A stretch of 64,000 nt of DNA from Bacteroidales bacterium (GTDB lineage: Bacteria; Bacteroidota; Bacteroidia; Bacteroidales; JAAUTT01), in assembly GCA_036261135.1 (NCBI GenBank), contig DATALJ010000108.1:15971-79970 (forward strand). The letters are read 5' to 3'. The position numbers and the translations under genes were made by a program. This document shows positions 4,630 to 63,908 of the stretch, piece after piece. Every line of letters starts with the position of its first letter. Position 1 is the stretch's first letter. The notes under the pieces are model-generated. The model searched no databases. It worked only from the letters and a program-made list of their open reading frames with translations, and was not told where the DNA came from.

Positions 4630-4845
4630 AATTGTTGAGTTTTAATGATTAAACAAATGCTAATACTTTGATTACTGTTTTACTTTAAGTAGAACTTAAT
4701 GACGGGTAAAATCAATAATTTACATTACAAAGGTGGAACTCTTTCAAATAATGTGCGTTACAAAACTTTTATTATTAATTATAACATTCACACATTTCAC
4801 AACAAATGACGCGTTTTATTAAACAAAATGATTTTTCAAGAGATT

Positions 4846-4985
4846 TGTCATTCCGGCGAAGGCTTATAGCCGTCAATCTAAGCGCGCGTTGAATTGCCGT
4901 TGACTTTAGTCAAGGGCTTGTAATTATTAAAATAATAAGGCTTTAGCCGAAATTATTTAAAGTTTGGCTAAAGCCAGGTTGACCC
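4846..4985. repeat. REP/MITE-like structured repeat, long form, truncated copy (left terminus only)
   Basis: Starts with TGTCATTCCGGCGAAGGC. It shares a ~110-nt core with 16857-17025, including GTTGAATTGCCGTTGACTTTAGTCAA and the hairpin GGCTTTAGCC-17nt-GGCTAAAGCC. No matching right terminus. Confidence 0.7.
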
Positions 4986-5600: not shown

Positions 5601-5625
5601 TATTTTTGCATACCGCTTGTGCGGT
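5601..5625 (+). promoter_or_regulatory. candidate -7 box (TATTTTTG) abutting a palindromic operator ACCGCTTGTGCGGT upstream of tetR
   Basis: TATTTTTG at 5601-5608 fits the Bacteroides-type TAnnTTTG -7 consensus. The 14-bp palindrome at 5612-5625 recurs at 6267-6280. Confidence 0.45.
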
Positions 5626-5643
5626 TTTTTAAGATTAACACAA

Positions 5644-6240
5644 ATGAAAGATACAAAAGACATTATCCTGAAAACAGCCTACGATATGTTCTTATACAGT
5701 AACTACGAGGCTGTAACCATACGCAATATTATTAAAGCTACAGGTCTCACCAAAGGCGCAATCTATCATTATTACGAAAGCAAAGAAGAACTTTTCAAGG
5801 CTGTTGTTGATAAATATATGCTCGAAAACCTTGAGGATAGCGATGTAACTTATGATAAGCTTAAAGACATAATTCAACATACCATAGATACAATTAAAGG
5901 AAAAACCAATGGAATGCTAATAGAAAGCGGATCTTCGCAAATCATTCTGCCAATTAATTATATCTCGCTTATGGTTTCTGCATATCGTTACTACCCTGAT
6001 TATGAAAAAATTGGAAGAACATTTTTTAAGCGAAAAATGGGAAAATGGGAACAAACCATTAAAACAGCTATAGAAAAAGGAGAAATTCGCCAGGACACAG
6101 ATATAAGAGCTACTGTGGCTACATTTATGCAAGTAAGCACTGGAATTGTAGCTAATATGATGATGGGTGGTTCAATTACCTATGCACTTAATATGCTCGA
6201 ACGCCAATTTTGGGAACTATATAAAAACATTAAAAAGTAA
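5644..6240 (+). CDS. TetR/AcrR family transcriptional regulator
   Basis: N-terminal HTH ILKTAYDMFLYSNYEAVTIRNIIKATGLTKGAIYHYYESKEELF. The start was moved to the ATG at 5644 because the 5617 start lies inside the operator/promoter. Confidence 0.85.
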   Translation: MKDTKDIILKTAYDMFLYSNYEAVTIRNIIKATGLTKGAIYHYYESKEELFKAVVDKYMLENLEDSDVTYDKLKDIIQHTIDTIKGKTNGMLIESGSSQIILPINYISLMVSAYRYYPDYEKIGRTFFKRKMGKWEQTIKTAIEKGEIRQDTDIRATVATFMQVSTGIVANMMMGGSITYALNMLERQFWELYKNIKK

Positions 6241-7720: not shown

Positions 7721-7760
7721 ATCATCCGCGAAAGCTCAAAGGGGATAACACTCGCAAGAT

Positions 7761-7827
7761 GTCATTCCGGCGCAGGCCGGAATCCCTTAACAACGGAGCT
7801 ACGGAGGCCGGCCTACGCCGGAATGAC
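7761..7827. repeat. REP-like hairpin element, short form
   Basis: GTCATTCCGGCGCAGGCCGG ... CCGGCCTACGCCGGAATGAC forms 20-nt terminal inverted repeats with 1 mismatch. It lies between the TolC and MFP genes. Confidence 0.75.
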
Positions 7828-7852
7828 AAATGAAACGCAAAAAAAAGAAAAT

Positions 7853-12525: not shown

Positions 12526-15500
12526 TTATTGTACGATAAGCTTTTTATTGAGTAATTCTTGCTTACCTACAACTTTCACAAAGTATACACCCGGTGCATA
12601 CCCTGTTATGTCGAGCTCATATACATCCTGATTTTCCGTTTCCACGATTTTAACCATTCTGCCATTACTATCGAGTAGGAATACTTTCACTTTCTCTTTC
12701 TCCATATGCTGAGCAAAGCGAATGTATACTTTTCCCGAAGCAGGATTAGGATACACTTCTGCTGAAACCTGGTTATCATTGTCTGCAATTCCTGTAGCAG
12801 GACTAACAGTAATATATCCGGTCTTTGTTTCGGTATCTGTTGATCCGGTTTTGGAAACAACCAGTTTTACAGTATAAGTACCGGAAGTGGTGTATGTAAA
12901 CGATGGATTTTTGGTTGTTGCATCAACGGTTCCATCGTTGTCGAAATCCCAGGCCCAGGTTGTAGGCGTTCCTGTAGACTGATCAGTGAAATTAACCTGT
13001 AATGGAGCTGAACCAGTGGTTTTATTTGCTGTAAATGCAGCTTCAACCGGAGCAGAAACAGTTATGTAGGCTGTCTTTGTTTCGGTATCCGAAGATCCGG
13101 TTTTGGAAGCAACCAGTTTTACCGTATAAGTGCCAGCAGCCGAATACGTGTACGACGGATTCTGCGTAGTAGCGTCTACTGTACCATCGTTGTTGAAATC
13201 CCAGGCCCAGGTTGTTGGTGTTCCTGTAGATTGATCGGTAAAATTAACCTGGAGTGGAGCAAGTCCTGAAGTTACATTTGCAGAGAAAGCAGCTTCTACC
13301 GGAGCAGAAACAGTTATGTATGCCGTCTTTGTTTCAGTATCCGAAGATCCGGTTTTGGAAGCAACCAATTTTACGGTATAAGTACCAGCTGCCGAATACG
13401 TGAACGACGGATTCTGCGTAGTAGCATCTACTGTACCATCGTTGTTAAAGTCCCAGGCCCAGGTTGTAGGTGTTCCTGTAGATTGATCGGTGAACGAAAC
13501 TACCAACGGACTTACTCCCGATGTTTTATTGGCTGTGAATTGAGCATCCACGGGTACATCAACCCTAATTTCATCAATTCCAATATCCGAGTTTCCACAA
13601 TCAGAAGTAGCCTTAAACCTCAGAACTGCATTTGACGATGTTATGTTCCCCAAATCAACAGAGACTTCTGTCCACTGATAATTGTATGATTCTGTAACTA
13701 AAGCATCCCCGAATGTCAGTCCTCCATCAACTGAGAGATAAACTTTTAAAAAGTCGCTTCCACCCGCATTGATATTCTGAAAGGTTAGTCTTTTGTTTCC
13801 TGCCAATGAAGAAAAATCAATATAAAAATCCAGGTATCCCGACTTGCCGGTATTTGCATAATAAGAATGAAAGCGTGCCGAATGCAAAGTATTTAATGCA
13901 CCTTCAGGACTATATGAACCATAATTATTGGACCAAACCCCTCTTGCGTAACCATCATCCGATCTGCTCCAGGAGGAATCGGTAGTTGCAGGTGAATTAA
14001 TCGCATATATTGAAGGGACATCGCGGGTAGCTCCTCTATTTACCCATTCATTTTCGAAATTCTCGGTAAATGGTAATGGTGCCTTATTGCAGGTTGTTAT
14101 GTATTGATTCTTTATTCGCGAAGCTATTGCTCCCGGTTTTGAGGTTACCAGTTTTACCGAATAAGACCCGATAGTTGTAAAGGTATAAGATGGATTTTGC
14201 GTTGTAGCATCCGTAATGCCGTCGTTATTGAAATCCCATGCCCAGGTTGTCGGTTCACCGGTGGACTGATCGGAAAAATTGACAGTGAAAGGGATTGGCC
14301 CAGTTTTTTTGTCAGCAGTAAATTCTGCGTTAATTGGTGTACTGGTTCCTATAGAAATTTCATCCAATCCGATATCCCAACTGCCATACGAGCCCTTTCC
14401 CTTAAACCGGACGATGCCTGTTGCCGTAGTTACATTTCCTAAATCGACAGTAACCATTGTCCAGGCATCAACAACACCCCTTTTATCAAGTAAATTGAAA
14501 GTAGCACCATTATCAGTAGACAAATACACTTTCAAAGAATCTCTTTCACTATAGCTTAAATACCAAAATGTAAGCGATTTACTTCCAGCAAGGGTGGAGA
14601 AATTAATATAATAATCCAGATTACCCTCTGCGGAAGTACTACATGAGTGGAATCTTGCTGAATGCCCTGTATTATTAGCTCCTACCGGAGTATAGTTTCC
14701 ATACGAACTGCCCCAGGCCCCTCTTTTTTCGCCATCATCATTACGACTCCAGGAATTATTGTCAGTTGCAGGAGAATTTACCACATACAGCGAGGGAACA
14801 TCGCGTGTTGCAGCTCTACTAATCCAATCGCCTTCAAAATTTTCGAATAATGGCAATGAAGCATAGCCACCCACAAAAATGGAGGCATTTTTTGAAATCG
14901 TTTCGGAGGAACCGGTTTTGTATGCCCTAAATTTAACCGAATAAACACCGGGCGTACTATAAGTGTGTGTTGCGTTTTGTGTAGATGCATCTACAGTTCC
15001 GTTGTTATCAAAATCCCACTCCCAATTGGTTGGGGCACCTGTTGATACATCTTTAAAACTCATAGTAAATGGAGCTATACCATAGGGAGTACCTGTATAA
15101 TAATCAGCCTTAACCGGCGATGCAGAAGGACTTTCAACGTAAATCTGATCCAGTCCGATATCACTCATCCCATTATCACCATAGGCAACAAACCGTACAA
15201 CACCTGTAGCAGAATTTACATCTCCCAATTCGACCTTAACATAGGTCCATGATGCAGCAACTTTTTGAACAGAAAGCCCTTTTCCAAAACTTGCCCCACC
15301 ATCTGTTGACAGGAACACTTTCAAGCTGTCCGATCCACTGGTATTGATATACCAAAAGCTTAGTGTTTTTGAACCTGCTTGCGTCGAAAAGTTAAGATTA
15401 AGATCCAGGTAACCACTTCTGCTTGTGCTATAAGTATGAATACGGGCCGAATGGTTTGTGCCATGTGCACCTTGAGGGAGATAACCGCCAGAATAGAAAT

Positions 15501-16518
15501 AATCATCGCGTCTCCACGAATTACTTCCTGTCGAATACTGATTTCTGAAATAAAGCGAAGGAACATCCGCTATGCTATCGCGGTTTATCCAATTGTTTTC
15601 GAAATTTTCGGTAAAAGGTAAACTGGCATAAGTTTGAGGGAGAACAATAATGTAATTGCTTTTTGTTTTTGAGAACGTTTCCGATCCTTTCGTACCTGTG
15701 AATTTAACTGAGTACGTCCCTGGAGTTGTATATGTATAACGGAAACCTTGCGTGGACGCATCTGCCGTACCATCATTATTAATGTCCCATTCCCACGCAG
15801 TTAAATCGATTGACGAAGAATCGGCAAACTGAATAGTAACCGGAGCCATTCCCGTATGTCTGCTGGCGAAAAAATCTAGCGTAATTGGAGTTGTAGGTGT
15901 TGTAACGCTTACATTATCGATACCTAAATCATCAGCGCCATAATCGCCTATTCCAACAAAGCGCAATACACATGTTGCTGATGTGGTTGATCCCAGGCTA
16001 ACCGAATATTTTGTCCATTTATTGGTTGGGTTGGTATTTAATTTAATAATAGGTTCCCCAAATGAAGTGCCGCCATCGGTAGAAAAATAGACCTTTAAAC
16101 TATCTACACCACTGGGATTAATATACCAAAAGGTCAATGTTTTTGTATCCGCATAACCCGAACAGTCGAGGTACAAGTCTAAAACACCTTTATTCTTCTT
16201 TGGCACAATATAAGCACGAAATCGGGCCGAATGGTTTGAGTAATTTGCACCGGAAGGGGAATATGCACCTCCCATACCACTCCATGCTCCACGATTCTGG
16301 CCATCATCATCCCTGCTCCAGGATGAGTCCGTAGTTGCAGGGGTATTCTTCCAATACGCAGAAGGGACATCGCGGGTAGCATCTTTATTTACCCAGGTAC
16401 CCTCAAATTGCTCATTAAAAGGCAAAGGAGCATACGTTTGTGCCGAATTTTTCTGATTTACGAAAAACCCGAAAAAAGATAAAGCAAGTAACAGAATGTA
16501 AAATTTCTTCATACGCAT
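12526..16518 (-). CDS. T9SS-secreted modular protein: 4 MAM/choice-of-anchor-J-like modules + 6 PKD domains + Por C-terminal sorting domain
   Basis: Signal peptide MRMKKFYILLLALSFFGFFVNQKNSAQ. The module (PLPFxENFExxW...RDVPSxY...SWSRxDDG...HSARFH...LTFWYIN...DSLKVYLSTDGGxTFG) occurs four times. PKD motif FxDxSTGxPTxWxWDFxNDGTxDA...Y occurs six times. C-terminus VYPNPASGKVYIRF...GVYFVKVVGKQELLNKKLIVQ. Confidence 0.85.
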   Translation of the reverse strand: MRMKKFYILLLALSFFGFFVNQKNSAQTYAPLPFNEQFEGTWVNKDATRDVPSAYWKNTPATTDSSWSRDDDGQNRGAWSGMGGAYSPSGANYSNHSARFRAYIVPKKNKGVLDLYLDCSGYADTKTLTFWYINPSGVDSLKVYFSTDGGTSFGEPIIKLNTNPTNKWTKYSVSLGSTTSATCVLRFVGIGDYGADDLGIDNVSVTTPTTPITLDFFASRHTGMAPVTIQFADSSSIDLTAWEWDINNDGTADASTQGFRYTYTTPGTYSVKFTGTKGSETFSKTKSNYIIVLPQTYASLPFTENFENNWINRDSIADVPSLYFRNQYSTGSNSWRRDDYFYSGGYLPQGAHGTNHSARIHTYSTSRSGYLDLNLNFSTQAGSKTLSFWYINTSGSDSLKVFLSTDGGASFGKGLSVQKVAASWTYVKVELGDVNSATGVVRFVAYGDNGMSDIGLDQIYVESPSASPVKADYYTGTPYGIAPFTMSFKDVSTGAPTNWEWDFDNNGTVDASTQNATHTYSTPGVYSVKFRAYKTGSSETISKNASIFVGGYASLPLFENFEGDWISRAATRDVPSLYVVNSPATDNNSWSRNDDGEKRGAWGSSYGNYTPVGANNTGHSARFHSCSTSAEGNLDYYINFSTLAGSKSLTFWYLSYSERDSLKVYLSTDNGATFNLLDKRGVVDAWTMVTVDLGNVTTATGIVRFKGKGSYGSWDIGLDEISIGTSTPINAEFTADKKTGPIPFTVNFSDQSTGEPTTWAWDFNNDGITDATTQNPSYTFTTIGSYSVKLVTSKPGAIASRIKNQYITTCNKAPLPFTENFENEWVNRGATRDVPSIYAINSPATTDSSWSRSDDGYARGVWSNNYGSYSPEGALNTLHSARFHSYYANTGKSGYLDFYIDFSSLAGNKRLTFQNINAGGSDFLKVYLSVDGGLTFGDALVTESYNYQWTEVSVDLGNITSSNAVLRFKATSDCGNSDIGIDEIRVDVPVDAQFTANKTSGVSPLVVSFTDQSTGTPTTWAWDFNNDGTVDATTQNPSFTYSAAGTYTVKLVASKTGSSDTETKTAYITVSAPVEAAFSANVTSGLAPLQVNFTDQSTGTPTTWAWDFNNDGTVDATTQNPSYTYSAAGTYTVKLVASKTGSSDTETKTAYITVSAPVEAAFTANKTTGSAPLQVNFTDQSTGTPTTWAWDFDNDGTVDATTKNPSFTYTTSGTYTVKLVVSKTGSTDTETKTGYITVSPATGIADNDNQVSAEVYPNPASGKVYIRFAQHMEKEKVKVFLLDSNGRMVKIVETENQDVYELDITGYAPGVYFVKVVGKQELLNKKLIVQ
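12795..13550. repeat. 3 x 252-bp near-identical tandem repeat (PKD domains 4-6) inside the T9SS gene
   Basis: CCGGAGCAGAAACAGTTATGTA recurs at 13047 and 13299, exactly 252 bp apart. The encoded 84-aa units are nearly identical (VEAAF(S/T)AN...TKTAYITVSAP). Confidence 0.85.
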
Positions 16519-16690
16519 TTTATTAAGTTTTATACTTAAAAATGCAGGTTGTAACGCTATTTTTTAGCAATTGAGTTATTGAATGGTGAATAATTAACCG
16601 TGAGTGGTTTTATGATTGTGTGAATGGTAAATTGCGATATTTGTGATGCATATATTTGAAGTCGATGTATTAATTTCACTGTTCAGCGTC

Positions 16691-16838
16691 ACTCCGAAAG
16701 GGTAAAATTTTACTCTGAAAGGGTAAAACTTAACTCCGAACGACAAAAATTTCACTCCGAATGGGTCATAACCCACTCCGAAAGGCAAAAACTTAAGTCT
16801 GAATGGGGTAAAAACTATTCTGTAGGTCAAAAGTCAAT
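16691..16838. repeat. phased tandem array, about 7 degenerate copies of a 21-bp unit (ACTCCGAAAGGGTAAAANTTN)
   Basis: Units start at 16691, 16712, 16733, 16754 and 16775 (exactly 21 bp apart), then 16796 (a 22-bp unit) and 16818 (degenerate). The array lies 173-320 nt upstream of the T9SS gene start. Confidence 0.85.
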
Positions 16839-16856
16839 CGCAAAATGATACGAAGG

Positions 16857-17025
16857 TGCAATTCCAGCAAAGGCCCATGACCGTCAAGCTAACAAGTGTT
16901 GAATTGCCGTTGACTTTAGTCAACGGTTTGGAACTACTAAGCTAAAAAGGCTTTAGCCAAAACTTTTTAAAATTTGGCTAAAGCCAGCTTCGTAGCAAAC
17001 GGATTCCGGCCTTCGCCGGAATGAC
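16857..17025. repeat. REP/MITE-like structured repeat, long form, complete copy
   Basis: Degenerate left terminus (C)AATTCCAGCAAAGGCC and right terminus ATTCCGGCCTTCGCCGGAATGAC, which is the reverse complement of GTCATTCCGGCGAAGGCCGGAAT. Internal hairpins are CCGTTGAC-TTTA-GTCAACGG and GGCTTTAGCC-17nt-GGCTAAAGCC. Confidence 0.75.
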
Positions 17026-17046
17026 ATTTTCGGAGCTTAATTCTTG

Positions 17047-18111
17047 CTACTTATACCTCTTTTTGAACTCCTTAACCTCCCGTATCATTTTCCCAAACTG
17101 CTTTCCAAGGCGCTTCTTATCCTCGGCTTTCAGGGCAAAATGGGCTTGTTCACGCACCAGTTTAATATAATTGTTATACTGAACAGCCTCCAGGGTTCCA
17201 TTCGCCAGAGCTGCCAATACAGCGCATCCTGCTTCGTTGATATGGCGACAATCGGCATAATGGCAGTAGGATGCCAGTTCATCTATTGCCGGGAAAAGCG
17301 TATTGGATGATGTTTCCTCGTCAAAAGCCACACCAAACTCGCGCATTCCGGGAGAATCAATTACAAGGCTTCCATTCGGCAATTGAAACATGTCCCGGGT
17401 AGTGGTTACATGTTTTCCCTTACCAGTAGAAGCACTTATTTCGCCTGTTTCGCGCTTAATATCGGTCTTTAAGGCCTTCAGCAACGAGCTTTTACCTACT
17501 CCGGACGAGCCAATAAGAATGTATGTCTTTGCCGGATAAAGCGCCTTCTCCAAAATATCTGAAATACCGTATTGTGTATATGTACTGCATAAATATACCT
17601 GACAATTCCGGTGCAATTTACTTACTTCATTCTTGTAGAATTCAGGATTATCCGTTAAATCCATCTTATTGAGAATAACAATGGGCTCTATTCCGCAGGC
17701 CAATACCTGTACAATGTACCGTTCGAGCCTGGCTACATTGAAATTCTGATCGATACCCTGTACAATAAAGGCATAGTCAATATTCGCAGCCAGCACCTGT
17801 TTTTCTGTCTTGTTTCCCGGACTTTTTCTTGTGAGAGCATTGGTACGCGGCAGCAAATCAATGATGTATCCTAACGAATCGTAGGGCATATAAAACACCC
17901 AGTCGCCCACCTTTGGCAAATGCTCGGAATCGTTACCGTACAACATTTTACCTGAGAGCTCCGCCTCTATTTCTTCGTTGTTTGTGATAAGAAGGTATTT
18001 AAAACCCTGGATAGATATCACTCTTCCGATTTCAAACCCTTGATTATGTTTGTTACGATATTCGTTATAAAAATTATTCCAGCCGAAATTTTCTAAATTT
18101 TTCATTTTCAT
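17047..18111 (-). CDS. rsgA: ribosome small-subunit-dependent GTPase A
   Basis: Circularly permuted GTPase motifs (ILNKMDL ... GSSGVGKSSLLKAL) and a C-terminal zinc knuckle CHYADCRHINEAGCAV. Confidence 0.9.
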   Translation of the reverse strand: MKMKNLENFGWNNFYNEYRNKHNQGFEIGRVISIQGFKYLLITNNEEIEAELSGKMLYGNDSEHLPKVGDWVFYMPYDSLGYIIDLLPRTNALTRKSPGNKTEKQVLAANIDYAFIVQGIDQNFNVARLERYIVQVLACGIEPIVILNKMDLTDNPEFYKNEVSKLHRNCQVYLCSTYTQYGISDILEKALYPAKTYILIGSSGVGKSSLLKALKTDIKRETGEISASTGKGKHVTTTRDMFQLPNGSLVIDSPGMREFGVAFDEETSSNTLFPAIDELASYCHYADCRHINEAGCAVLAALANGTLEAVQYNNYIKLVREQAHFALKAEDKKRLGKQFGKMIREVKEFKKRYK

Positions 18112-35748: not shown

Positions 35749-35803
35749 GTCATTCCGGCGAAGGCCGAACCATTCACTTGCGACTAGTCTTTGCCGGAAT
35801 GAC
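35749..35803. repeat. REP-like hairpin element, short form, between convergent genes
   Basis: GTCATTCCGGCGAAGG...25 nt...CTTTGCCGGAATGAC. Same termini as the 7761-7827 copy. Confidence 0.75.
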
Positions 35804-35832
35804 AACCATCTTTACACAAACCTTCATTTTAC

Positions 35833-61146: not shown

Positions 61147-61941
61147 TTAAAAGCAATAAAACAAACCAATTCTAAAGGCATTGGAATACATTTTCAATTC
61201 AACAGGTTTCGTATATTTTACATGCTGAAATTCATAGCTCAATTGCAGATTAAACTTCTCTGCAAGCAATGTTTGAAAGGCTATATGGGCATTGAATGAA
61301 AGATTATCCGTTAAGAATACCGTTTTGCCAAACGTTTTCATATCCCAGCTGTTTGTGGTATAGTTGTAATCGCCACTCGGTGAATATTCCGGTCGGGAAA
61401 CATTACTGATCAAAGGAATAAACAACCTTGCTGTTATAAATTTGCGGGAAGCAAAGGAATATTCAACCTGCGAAGCCAGATCGAACGAATGACTCCAGTA
61501 CCAAGAAGTTATTGCCCGCACATTGGGAATGGTTAAATACGTGTAGCTATAATCGGACCGATTGAAAAACGATTGAATGGAACCTCCGGCGTATATATGA
61601 AGCCTTTCATTGCTACGAAATAAATTAGTCATTAACGCATACCTGACTCTTCCGGCGTAATGCTGTGTGGTGAAGTTATCGGGCAAAGCTTTGAGCTTGT
61701 TATACGCAAAAGACACCTCTGCAAAGTGAATATAGACGTCCGATTGGTGTATAAATTGAAGCGACGGAGCAATGCCATTGCTTCTATAAATCAATGGTGA
61801 TGCATGCTGATCCTGTAAATGAAGATTGCTGCCACCAAAACAAATTCCCAAATAGTTGAGGGCACTCTGTGCTAAAACATTACATGAATTCCAAACCAAA
61901 ACAGCAATAAGAGCAAGCGATACAAACGTTTTACGTGTCAT
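61147..61941 (-). CDS. hypothetical outer-membrane beta-barrel-like protein
   Basis: Signal peptide MTRKTFVSLALIAVLVWNSCNVLAQ, Tyr/Ser-rich strand pattern and a C-terminal RIGLFYCF. Its stop directly abuts the S41 start. Confidence 0.45.
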   Translation of the reverse strand: MTRKTFVSLALIAVLVWNSCNVLAQSALNYLGICFGGSNLHLQDQHASPLIYRSNGIAPSLQFIHQSDVYIHFAEVSFAYNKLKALPDNFTTQHYAGRVRYALMTNLFRSNERLHIYAGGSIQSFFNRSDYSYTYLTIPNVRAITSWYWSHSFDLASQVEYSFASRKFITARLFIPLISNVSRPEYSPSGDYNYTTNSWDMKTFGKTVFLTDNLSFNAHIAFQTLLAEKFNLQLSYEFQHVKYTKPVELKMYSNAFRIGLFYCF

Positions 61942-62155
61942 GGAGGCAAATTAAGATAATTGCTAGCGGCTATTTGAAGCTATGTGCCAAAGGTATAATT
62001 ATTTAAGATATCGCAAAATGATTGATACTATAATTAATAGATTAAACAAAAGACCATCGCAAGTCAAAGCTATTAGCTCGTGACTCTCATTATGGAATTC
62101 ACACTTTCTTAAAAAGTTCCAACAAATTATTTTCGCATCCTAGCATGGTTTGTAT

Positions 62156-62163
62156 TATATTTG
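62156..62163 (+). promoter_or_regulatory. candidate Bacteroides-type -7 box TATATTTG
   Basis: Matches TAnnTTTG, 35 nt upstream of the ATG at 62199. It lies inside the longer ORF-track call, which argues against the 62145 start. Confidence 0.45.
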
Positions 62164-62198
62164 TCGCCGAAAATAATTCAAATCCAAATTATAATTAT

Positions 62199-62891
62199 AT
62201 GAGTTTCACACACGAAGTTGAAGGAATGATCTGCCTTGCCCAAGGCGCGAATCATGGCCCTGCCCCAATTCCCGAAGAAGGTCGTTGGGTAAAGGCAAAA
62301 GAAGTTAAAGATATCTCGGGGTTGACCCACGGTGTTGGCTGGTGTGCTCCACAACAAGGCGCTTGCAAGCTCACATTAAACGTAAAAGACGGTATTATCC
62401 AGGAAGCATTGGTAGAAACTATCGGTTGCACCGGTATGACTCACTCTGCTGCTATGGCTGCCGAAATTCTACCCAACAAAACCATTCTCGAAGCATTGAA
62501 CACTGACTTGGTTTGCGATGCAATCAACACAGCAATGCGCGAATTATTCCTGCAAATCGTTTACGGACGTACACAAACTGCATTCTCTGAAGGCGGTCTG
62601 CCTATTGGTGCTGGTCTCGAAGACTTAGGTAAAGGCCTTCGTGGTGTTACCGGTACATTGTATGGAACATCGGCTAAAGGTCCTCGCTACCTCGAAATGG
62701 CCGAAGGTTATATCACCAAAATCGGTATCGACAAAGACAACGAAATTATCGGTTACGAATTCGTTAGCCTTGGCCGTATGATGGATATGATCAAAACCGG
62801 TATGGATGCTAATGAAGCATTAAAGAAAGCATCTGGCAAATATGGCCGTATAGAAGATGCAGTAAAAGTTATTGACCCACGTAAAGAATAG
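62199..62891 (+). CDS. NifU/IscU-N-terminal-like protein with a ~100-aa C-terminal extension
   Basis: Three Cys contexts parallel IscU: GVGWCAPQQGAC, ETIGCTGMTHSAAMAAEIL and DLVCDAINTAM. A Gly-rich extension follows. Confidence 0.65.
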   Translation: MSFTHEVEGMICLAQGANHGPAPIPEEGRWVKAKEVKDISGLTHGVGWCAPQQGACKLTLNVKDGIIQEALVETIGCTGMTHSAAMAAEILPNKTILEALNTDLVCDAINTAMRELFLQIVYGRTQTAFSEGGLPIGAGLEDLGKGLRGVTGTLYGTSAKGPRYLEMAEGYITKIGIDKDNEIIGYEFVSLGRMMDMIKTGMDANEALKKASGKYGRIEDAVKVIDPRKE

Positions 62892-62903: not shown

Positions 62904-63908
62904 ATGTCACAAAACGCACAATTATTCGAAAGCTACGGCCGCCGTATTAACCAAATCAACAAAGTCCTCAATTCTTACGGAATTTCTTCAATTGAAGAAG
63001 CTAAAAAGATTTGCGACGACAAAGGTGTTGACGTTTACAAGATTGTAAAAGACATTCAACCTATTGCATTTGAAAACGCAATGTGGGCTTACATTACAGG
63101 CGCTGCTATTGCTATCAAAAAAGGTCAGAAGAATGCTGCTGAAATCGCTGAAACATTAGGCGAAGGCTTACAGGCTTTCTGTATCCCTGGCTCAGTAGCC
63201 GACGACCGTAAGGTAGGTCTTGGCCATGGTAACCTCGCGGCGATGTTGCTTCGCGAAGAAACCAAATGTTTCGCATTCCTCGCTGGTCACGAATCATTCG
63301 CTGCTGCCGAAGGTGCTATTGGTATTGCTAAATCGGCAAACAAAGTACGTAAAGAACCACTCCGCGTTATTCTTAACGGTTTAGGTAAGGACGCAGCTAA
63401 GATCATTGCTCGTATAAACGGCTTTACTTATGTTCAAACCCAGTTCGACTATGCTACCGGCGAAGTAAAAGAAGTAAAACGTACAGCTTACTCAACCGGC
63501 GACCGTGCTAAGGTTAACTGCTATGGTGCTGACGATGTTCGCGAAGGTGTTGCTATTTTCCACAAGGAAGGTGTAGACGTATCGATTACCGGTAACTCTA
63601 CCAACCCTACCCGCTTCCAACACCCTGTAGCTGGTACTTACAAGAAAGAATGTATCGAACAAGGCAAGAAATACTTCTCTGTAGCTTCTGGTGGCGGTAC
63701 AGGACGTACATTACATCCTGATAACATGGCTGCTGGTCCTGCTTCGTATGGTATGACTGATACAATGGGTCGCATGCACTCTGATGCTCAGTTTGCCGGT
63801 TCTTCTTCAGTTCCTGCTCACGTTGAAATGATGGGTCTTATCGGTATGGGTAACAACCCAATGGTAGGCGCATCTGTAGCTGTAGCTGTAGCATTATCTC
63901 AGGCTTAA
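62904..63908 (+). CDS. GGGtGRT-family protein (function unknown)
   Basis: 334 aa containing the name-giving motif SVASGGGTGRTLHPDNMAAGPASYGMTD and a C-terminal GMGNNPMVGASVAVAVA. Confidence 0.8.
   Translation: MSQNAQLFESYGRRINQINKVLNSYGISSIEEAKKICDDKGVDVYKIVKDIQPIAFENAMWAYITGAAIAIKKGQKNAAEIAETLGEGLQAFCIPGSVADDRKVGLGHGNLAAMLLREETKCFAFLAGHESFAAAEGAIGIAKSANKVRKEPLRVILNGLGKDAAKIIARINGFTYVQTQFDYATGEVKEVKRTAYSTGDRAKVNCYGADDVREGVAIFHKEGVDVSITGNSTNPTRFQHPVAGTYKKECIEQGKKYFSVASGGGTGRTLHPDNMAAGPASYGMTDTMGRMHSDAQFAGSSSVPAHVEMMGLIGMGNNPMVGASVAVAVALSQA

Follow-up and report, generated by a model that had tools for sequence, protein, structure and literature searches.

The window (the whole 64-kb stretch of Bacteroidales DNA that was analyzed) carries an array of seven 21-bp units, five good and two degenerate, at positions 16691-16837. 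The array lies between rsgA and a gene for a T9SS cargo protein, and the features of this intergenic region and its surroundings are as follows.

12526-16518, minus strand: T9SS cargo gene, 1330 aa, with six PKD domains, a MAM domain and a Por_Secre_tail domain (Pfam)
16519-16690, minus strand: AT-rich segment from the array to the cargo start codon, GC about 0.27-0.33
16691-16795, plus strand: five well-kept 21-bp units, ACTCCGAAAGGGTAAAATTTT, ACTCTGAAAGGGTAAAACTTA, ACTCCGAACGACAAAAATTTC, ACTCCGAATGGGTCATAACCC and ACTCCGAAAGGCAAAAACTTA
16796-16837, plus strand: two degenerate units, AGTCTGAATGGGGTAAAAACT and ATTCTGTAGGTCAAAAGTCAA, which keep the exact 21-bp register
about 16850-17040, no strand assigned: composite REP/MITE-like hairpin element; the terminal inverted arms around GTCATTCCGGCGAAGGCC are imperfect, and two hairpins lie inside the element
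about 16600-17046, no strand assigned: block missing from the syntenic relative L153/L154 (alignment A1; cargo-side boundary approximate)
17047-18111, minus strand: rsgA (ribosome small-subunit-dependent GTPase A; Pfam), on the same strand as, and upstream of, the cargo gene

An NCBI protein labeled "MAG TPA: Bacteroidales bacterium", for which the start is placed two codons later (1328 aa), matches the cargo protein at 100% identity. The PKD, MAM and Por_Secre_tail domains of the cargo protein agree with the first-pass annotation, in which a T9SS cargo gene had been assigned downstream of the array. The neighboring genes in the window are rsgA, an OMP gene, fabH, the nuo genes and an RND efflux operon. 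A Pfam scan, which covered most, not all, window ORFs of at least 110 aa, found no DNA-binding regulator within about 10 kb of the array, as had been claimed when the cargo gene was first described as lacking a nearby regulator; the nearest is a TetR protein (5617-6240) beside the efflux operon. Besides this TetR protein, the regulators found among the scanned ORFs were an XRE-cupin protein and a hybrid kinase that has no DNA-binding domain. ORF 62904-63908, near the end of the window, codes for a member of the GGGtGRT family (PF14057, E = 2e-196), and the two ORFs beside it (61147-61941 and 62145-62891) have no Pfam family.

Each of the five well-kept units consists of an 8-bp core followed by a variable tail that is mainly an A-tract. 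Exact matches to the core, ACTCYGAA, were found at 16691, 16712, 16733, 16754 and 16775, and Tandem Repeats Finder (TRF) reported the array at 16691-16813 (period 21, 5.8 copies, 66% matches, score 90), which together confirmed the previous description of five units starting exactly 21 bp apart from 16691, each with an ACTC(C/T)GAA core and an A-rich tail. A repeat-family search likewise returned the array, as family D3 with spacings of 21, 21, 21 and 21. The two degenerate units form the decaying end of the array, where it borders the REP/MITE-like element, and they (AGTCTGAA for unit 6 at 16796 and ATTCTGTA for unit 7 at 16817) each start 21 bp past their predecessor, placing all 7/7 cores in the 21-bp register. 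Unit 6 had been described previously as a 22-bp unit; instead, it contains a one-base insertion (GGGG) that is compensated by a one-base loss in the same unit, leaving the register intact. With 21 bp corresponding to two helical turns, the cores do lie on the same DNA face, as stated previously and as found here with all seven in register.

Pairwise identity between units ranges from 10 to 18 of 21 positions (about 50-86%). An alternative 42-bp reading of the array by TRF gave 73% matches (score 114), and the units two apart resemble one another, with units 3 and 5 agreeing at 17/21 positions and units 4 and 6 at 14/21. The higher match rate at 42 bp than at 21 bp and these unit pairs record a duplication history as a higher-order periodicity. 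Overall, TRF and the core positions describe uninterrupted head-to-tail copies of a single unit, as is characteristic of a minisatellite. Elsewhere in the 64 kb, ACTCYGAA has a single occurrence (24647), and a 20-mer consensus searched with up to three mismatches is confined to the array (3 matches versus 0.04 expected). Outside the array, the 64 kb thus contain one isolated core and no further phased copies; the uniqueness of the motif applies to about 1-2% of the genome, and other copies may occur elsewhere.

The array begins 173 nt upstream of the cargo ATG at 16518 and spans 173-320 nt, in agreement with the distance reported before. The AT-rich segment between the array and the start codon presumably holds the cargo promoter and leader. 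A sigma-70 scan between array and ATG returned no relevant promoter, no sigma-54 promoter was found in the same interval, and the TAnnTTTG box was neither present upstream of the cargo gene nor enriched upstream of window genes. Weak near-matches to the Bacteroidetes -7 box occur at 16848 and 16835, which is at or past the distal end of the array. A second predicted curved segment (16486-16611, ratio 0.76) covers the cargo start codon and signal-peptide region, and this segment and the array bracket ~100 bp of straighter DNA.

On its rsgA side, the array abuts the REP/MITE-like element, which had been recognized as MITE-like from the outset. This assignment is reinforced by the fold of the element segment (16840-17046; -81.5 kcal/mol, z = -7.7) and by related copies in the window at 4838-4980, 7751-7828 and 35751-35812, which include a partial second copy of the composite element (4888-4980, 86% identity). 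The element probably also terminates rsgA transcription. Its internal hairpins are GTTGACTTTAGTCAAC and GGCTTTAGCC...GGCTAAAGCC, and a dispersed family of REP-like palindromes, GTCATTCCGGCGAAGGCCGGAATGAC, is found at 4838-4864, 7751-7828, 16999-17035 and 35751-35812. No member of this family was found in the close relatives compared (L001-L004, L153-L155), and none of the three other REP/MITE-like copies in the window is flanked by a 21-bp array. An inverted 10/13 match to the core, GCTCCGAAAATGT (minus strand, 17024-17036), lies immediately past the rsgA stop codon, at the end of the element distal to the array. The corresponding position in a relative with 87% RsgA identity (L003 1108) is a hairpin that includes CTTTCGGAGT.

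A cargo homologue (P0123) on Logan contigs L153-L155 provided a syntenic comparison, as the gene order (FabH, OMP, RsgA, cargo) and the gene orientation there both match those of the window. RsgA of this relative is 91% identical to the window protein and the cargo protein 58-68% identical. The rsgA stop and cargo start are separated by only about 42-85 bp in the relative, and the array, its core and the REP motif are all absent from L153-L155. The array therefore sits in a lineage-specific block of ~450 bp, in which it is joined by the REP/MITE-like element and by roughly 90 bp of unique AT-rich DNA. Presence of the array is accordingly restricted by lineage, as expected of a minisatellite, when judged at 91% RsgA identity, with the closest relative compared being only about that similar. 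Differing DNA was found downstream of rsgA in other relatives (92%, 87% and 69% identical in RsgA), which identifies the site as a hypervariable spot. Fewer PKD modules are present in the relative's cargo orthologue (1079 versus 1330 aa), indicating that domain number varies among lineages; in the window, the cargo gene contains internal tandem repeats of 252 bp (12805-13560 and 14092-14343) that correspond to PKD modules 75-79% identical to one another.

Three further cargo homologues (52-58% identical; L125, L126-128 and L129-130) have no upstream tandem repeat or core, and 21-bp-spaced repeats were found upstream of none of the four homologues. Absence from both the syntenic relative and the cargo homologues indicates that the array is lineage-specific and not needed by the cargo gene family. 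One of the homologues, P0124 (L129 727-3663), adjoins an ECF-type sigma gene and a divergent gene for a hybrid two-component sensor that has an HTH_AraC domain. This neighborhood, which is free of 21-bp repeats, hints at how the cargo family may be regulated elsewhere.

Curvature was predicted using a wedge model with Bolshoy-type parameters, which reproduced the classical results for phased versus unphased A6 tracts and for A4T4 versus T4A4. In this model, no other 126-bp segment of the 64 kb is as curved as the array, whose end-to-end/contour ratio is 0.70-0.72 compared to 0.953 +/- 0.033. The AA/TT phasor at 10.5 bp, which is free of parameters, was 15.5 versus 4.9 +/- 2.6, which ranks the array within the highest 0.1% of all segments. 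A-tracts 4 bp or more in length recur in helical phase in five or six of the 7 units, centered at 16707.5, 16726.5, 16748.5, 16789, 16812 and 16830.5. The predicted curvature of the array exceeds that of 98.7% of column-permuted versions (1.3% of trials were as curved), and as permuting the columns rarely matches it, the contiguity of the A-tracts appears to matter. However, repeats that recur every two turns add their bend in one plane, which makes the curvature largely generic to the 21-bp period, and 12-15% of random window 21-mers repeated six times reach the curvature of the array. The predicted bend is by itself no evidence of design. Of the earlier suggestion of intrinsically bent DNA, it therefore holds that the array has the strongest predicted bend in the window, but this bend is for the most part what a tandem repeat of this length would be predicted to show. 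Similar to the phased A-tract curved DNA found upstream of promoters, the array combines A4-A5 and A4T4 tracts in phase with a planar predicted bend and a position upstream of a gene start; it differs by having one tract per two turns, not one per turn, and a bend that would be a by-product of tandem repetition.

Mismatches between units avoid the 8-bp block, with permutation p values of 0.0125 (five units) and 0.007 (six units) if cells are treated as independent. Duplication is expected to leave variants in common between units, and several such shared variants are present. When shared variants were counted as single events (14-15 independent events), such a block arose by chance in 9-13% of cases. 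The evidence for a constrained core is thus weak, and the strict register is suggestive, though few indels are expected.

To search for similar arrays, genome contigs were scanned for three ACTCYGAA cores at 21-bp spacing, which gave at least 120 matches. Of the 120 matches listed, 90 are heptamer arrays and the other 30, which come from many phyla, are 21-bp arrays whose tails are unrelated; none is a related array. The genome of the window is not among these matches, and the scan thus bears on other genomes, not on further copies in that one. Heptamer arrays, (ACTCYGA)n, fit the three-core pattern trivially, and the genome-contig scan is therefore confounded. A metagenome scan with two copies of ACTCYGAAWGG returned 20 unrelated arrays, in none of which the tail GGGTAAAA was present, and neither plasmids (72,556) nor phage collections gave a match to a related array. 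The heptamer arrays, (ACTCCGA)n or (ACTCTGA)n, are themselves very widespread (L005-L124; for example, L041 4376-4474, L052 3279-3349 and L058 76-349), occurring among the matches listed in Bacteroidota, Cyanobacteriota, Acidobacteriota, Verrucomicrobiota, Planctomycetota and others. A single genome can carry several of them, as in Blastocatellia nzgw74 and Chitinophagales SVL1_sbin.56.

Considering these results together, we favor, at a probability of about one half, the reading that the array is a young, lineage-specific, decaying minisatellite whose bend is a by-product of its 21-bp period, and that it would lack a selected function. This reading is favored by the array-free syntenic relative, the uniqueness of the motif in 64 kb and the lack of related arrays in the scans, by the hypervariable DNA downstream of rsgA and the higher-order 42-bp structure, and by weak core conservation, a generic bend and the lack of any RNA, Rfam or coding signal. 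Replication slippage or unequal recombination would have produced head-to-tail copies of a 21-bp segment, inside the ~450-bp block that parts rsgA from the cargo gene and in this lineage only, with at least one duplication step copying a 42-bp dimer. The copies would then have drifted, the REP-side end decaying most. As 21 bp make two turns, the bend of one unit (mostly from A4-5 tracts) would sum in one plane, and both the predicted bend and the same-face cores follow from the period with no requirement for selection. The cargo gene may now require its own promoter, whose output the bend could affect incidentally. Bacterial intergenic minisatellites (VNTR) are likewise composed of 10-100-bp units arranged head to tail between genes, and the array shares further VNTR-like features in its 42-bp higher-order duplication, one decaying end, an occurrence that differs between relatives and a lack of conservation beyond the lineage. 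Compared to VNTR loci, divergence between units is high here, and the array is probably no longer expanding actively. Several observations argue against a decaying minisatellite: all seven cores hold an exact register despite 14-50% unit divergence, the one indel being compensated; an 8-bp block is poor in mismatches (p 0.01, independent cells); the curvature, a maximum for the window, exceeds 98.7% of column permutations; and the array occupies the sole possible site for a new cargo promoter.

Tandem repeats upstream of genes for surface or secreted proteins are the classical setting of contingency loci, and slippage in the array could alter copy number and thereby adjust the expression of the cargo gene, either like a rheostat or through phase variation. 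A precedent is the repeat-length rheostat documented for Helicobacter sabA (PMC4081817). However, we regard such a role as very unlikely here, as units of 50-86% identity, far from the near-identity of an active locus, are a poor substrate for slippage, and the array lies neither between promoter hexamers nor within the ORF. Only slightly less improbable is that the array represents subterminal transposase- or recombinase-binding repeats at one end of an inserted MITE-like or Tn7-like element. The array does adjoin the REP/MITE-like element, both lie within the block absent from the syntenic relative, and the inverted 10/13 core match (GCTCCGAAAATGT, at 17036) sits at the far element end; yet a match of this quality is expected by chance at ~9% (17 comparable matches in 128 kb), the other window copies of the family are without an array, and an inverted partner array and inverted cores are absent from the window. 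Neither a transposase nor an integrase was found among the Pfam-scanned window ORFs. A Tn7-like end was rejected on the lack of inverted cores and the chance-level far-end match, and an att site in a tRNA context was rejected as a tRNA gene is absent. An action as RNA or protein, either through a 5' leader with repeated protein-binding motifs (UUCGGAGU) or through translation, is highly improbable as well. Two open reading frames run through the array, one of them a 78-codon ORF (16594-16830, minus strand) encoding KFYPFGV heptads, and the weak -7 box near-matches described above would put the array in a leader. In opposition to an RNA element, which was rejected, neither strand folds better than its shuffles (z = -0.72 and -0.63), and Rfam gave no match at the gathering threshold and only chance-level ones at E up to 10. 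A coding repeat was rejected too: the 78-codon ORF has no Pfam match, and in its frame wobble positions fall within the invariant core whereas the residues encoded by the tails vary freely, which is a non-coding pattern. A word-based protein search with this ORF gave no match, and a search of representative proteins gave 26 weak matches, all of them heptad ORFs over other 21-bp repeats, one fungal; L151, a eukaryote-like minisatellite, is among these database relatives. The first-pass description of the array as iteron-like was also not upheld. Plasmid iterons (17-22-bp Rep-binding repeats with ~22-bp phasing) resemble the array in unit length, direct orientation, two-turn phasing and an adjoining AT-rich stretch, but here a rep gene is lacking, 0/72,556 plasmids match, and the context is one of chromosomal housekeeping genes (rsgA, fabH, nuo). 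No DnaA box occurs within 2 kb of the array, the nearest (18875) being inside a gene and the window total being at the level of chance, and the origin or iteron reading was rejected on the lack of a rep gene, a nearby DnaA box and a plasmid or phage match.

A more substantial, if still tentative, alternative to the decaying minisatellite is that the array has been co-opted as an upstream module, presenting same-face sites to a regulator that recognizes 21-bp direct repeats (an AraC/XylS-type domain, including those of Bacteroidota hybrid two-component systems, or a LytTR-type response regulator) or to an architectural protein of curved DNA. Cooperative binding or DNA wrapping could then activate or silence a cargo promoter located between array and ATG, which would be in use now that REP hairpins separate the gene from rsgA. 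In keeping with this, the 13-bp tails vary around a maintained 8-bp core, the 21-bp register is strict, the phased A-tracts give the strongest predicted bend in the window, and the array lies in the cargo gene's own intergenic region, 173-320 nt upstream of its start codon. AraC-family regulators, including those of Bacteroides, are known to bind direct repeats that recur every 21 bp (PMC3870299). The array has this exact periodicity in common with AraC/XylS operators (araI1-araI2; the Bacteroides RhaR motif), in which, as here, the conserved and A-rich parts of the unit are about one turn apart. It departs from them in having seven units, not two, no AraC-family gene in the scanned ORFs and no match to a known consensus. 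LytTR response regulators likewise use direct repeats at 21-bp periodicity, and in their operators (AgrA, ComE; ~12-bp spacer), as in the array, an 8-9-bp repeat and a 12-13-bp spacer make up the 21-bp period. Here too the array differs, with seven units, not two or three, no LytTR gene among the Pfam-scanned window ORFs, and a core (ACTCYGAA / TTCRGAGT) unlike the LytTR consensus. Paired direct repeats upstream of P2 and P3 serve as binding sites for AgrA (PMC4227749), and BldC, a small protein, forms head-to-tail oligomers on direct repeats of variable number and bends the DNA (PMC5859096). These resemblances are of geometry only; no cognate regulator was found among the scanned ORFs, though one may be encoded elsewhere, and the core matches no known consensus. 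Co-option also draws on the HTH_AraC hybrid sensor that adjoins P0124 and on an array of 8 x 21 bp with a CCCTTCGGA core on contig L152, which lies in the same orientation upstream of a Por_Secre_tail operon, though this likeness was selected for by the search itself. Further points against co-option are that the window contains no second site in 64 kb, that seven sites far exceed known AraC or LytTR operators, that the array is absent in the syntenic relative and all cargo homologues, and that the core-constraint statistics are marginal and the bend generic. Beyond its geometry, the cooperative array for a regulator or nucleoid protein that was proposed initially thus found no support.

If the array were nonetheless a functional set of binding sites, it would offer a handle on the regulation of T9SS cargo in uncultured Bacteroidota, where the cis-elements of such genes are almost unknown, and would represent a promoter module built from scratch after a mobile-element insertion had uncoupled a gene from its upstream neighbor. 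Its main value is cautionary, as a 21-bp tandem repeat automatically yields same-face motifs and a predicted bend, which alone are therefore no evidence of regulatory design.

It is also conceivable, though unlikely, that the array belongs to an undescribed class of Bacteroidota cis-elements, defined by 21-bp-phased repeats with a (A)CTCCGAA(A)G / C(T)TTCGGAG core and tails that vary freely. That members of such a class would be bound cooperatively, on one DNA face, by a direct-repeat regulator of surface or secreted protein genes seems equally doubtful. Leads in this direction are the L152 array and a group of Prevotellaceae arrays of 3-5 x 21 bp, which have an invariant ACTCCGAAAG and diverged tails and are located as follows.

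L014 1905-1954, L070 7817-7866 and L068 4879-4949, reverse strand: Prevotellaceae arrays
L049 1956-2005, L048 3801-3871 and L116 1843-1913: Prevotellaceae arrays

Their 10-nt core equals that of window units 1, 2 and 5, but the search pattern selected for it, and any relationship is therefore only putative. In L014 and L049 the array is conserved between different species and precedes an HU-like gene (MALELNLTKN...) by about 40 bp, and L049 and L070 have the upstream DNA and the array in common but differ downstream. A similar array, ACTCCGAAAGTAATTCCCGTT, is present on two IMG/VR viral contigs (L158 1330-1360 and L159). The L152 array (1574-1744; Bacteroidota metagenome contig) consists of units of GATTCCCTTCGGAGTCAAATT with a conserved block, ATTCCCTTCGGA, and lies 65 bp upstream of a 248-aa uncharacterized gene that is followed by a Laminin_G_3/Por_Secre_tail cargo gene. 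It is oriented toward these genes as the array is in the window, and its predicted curvature is low (0.91).
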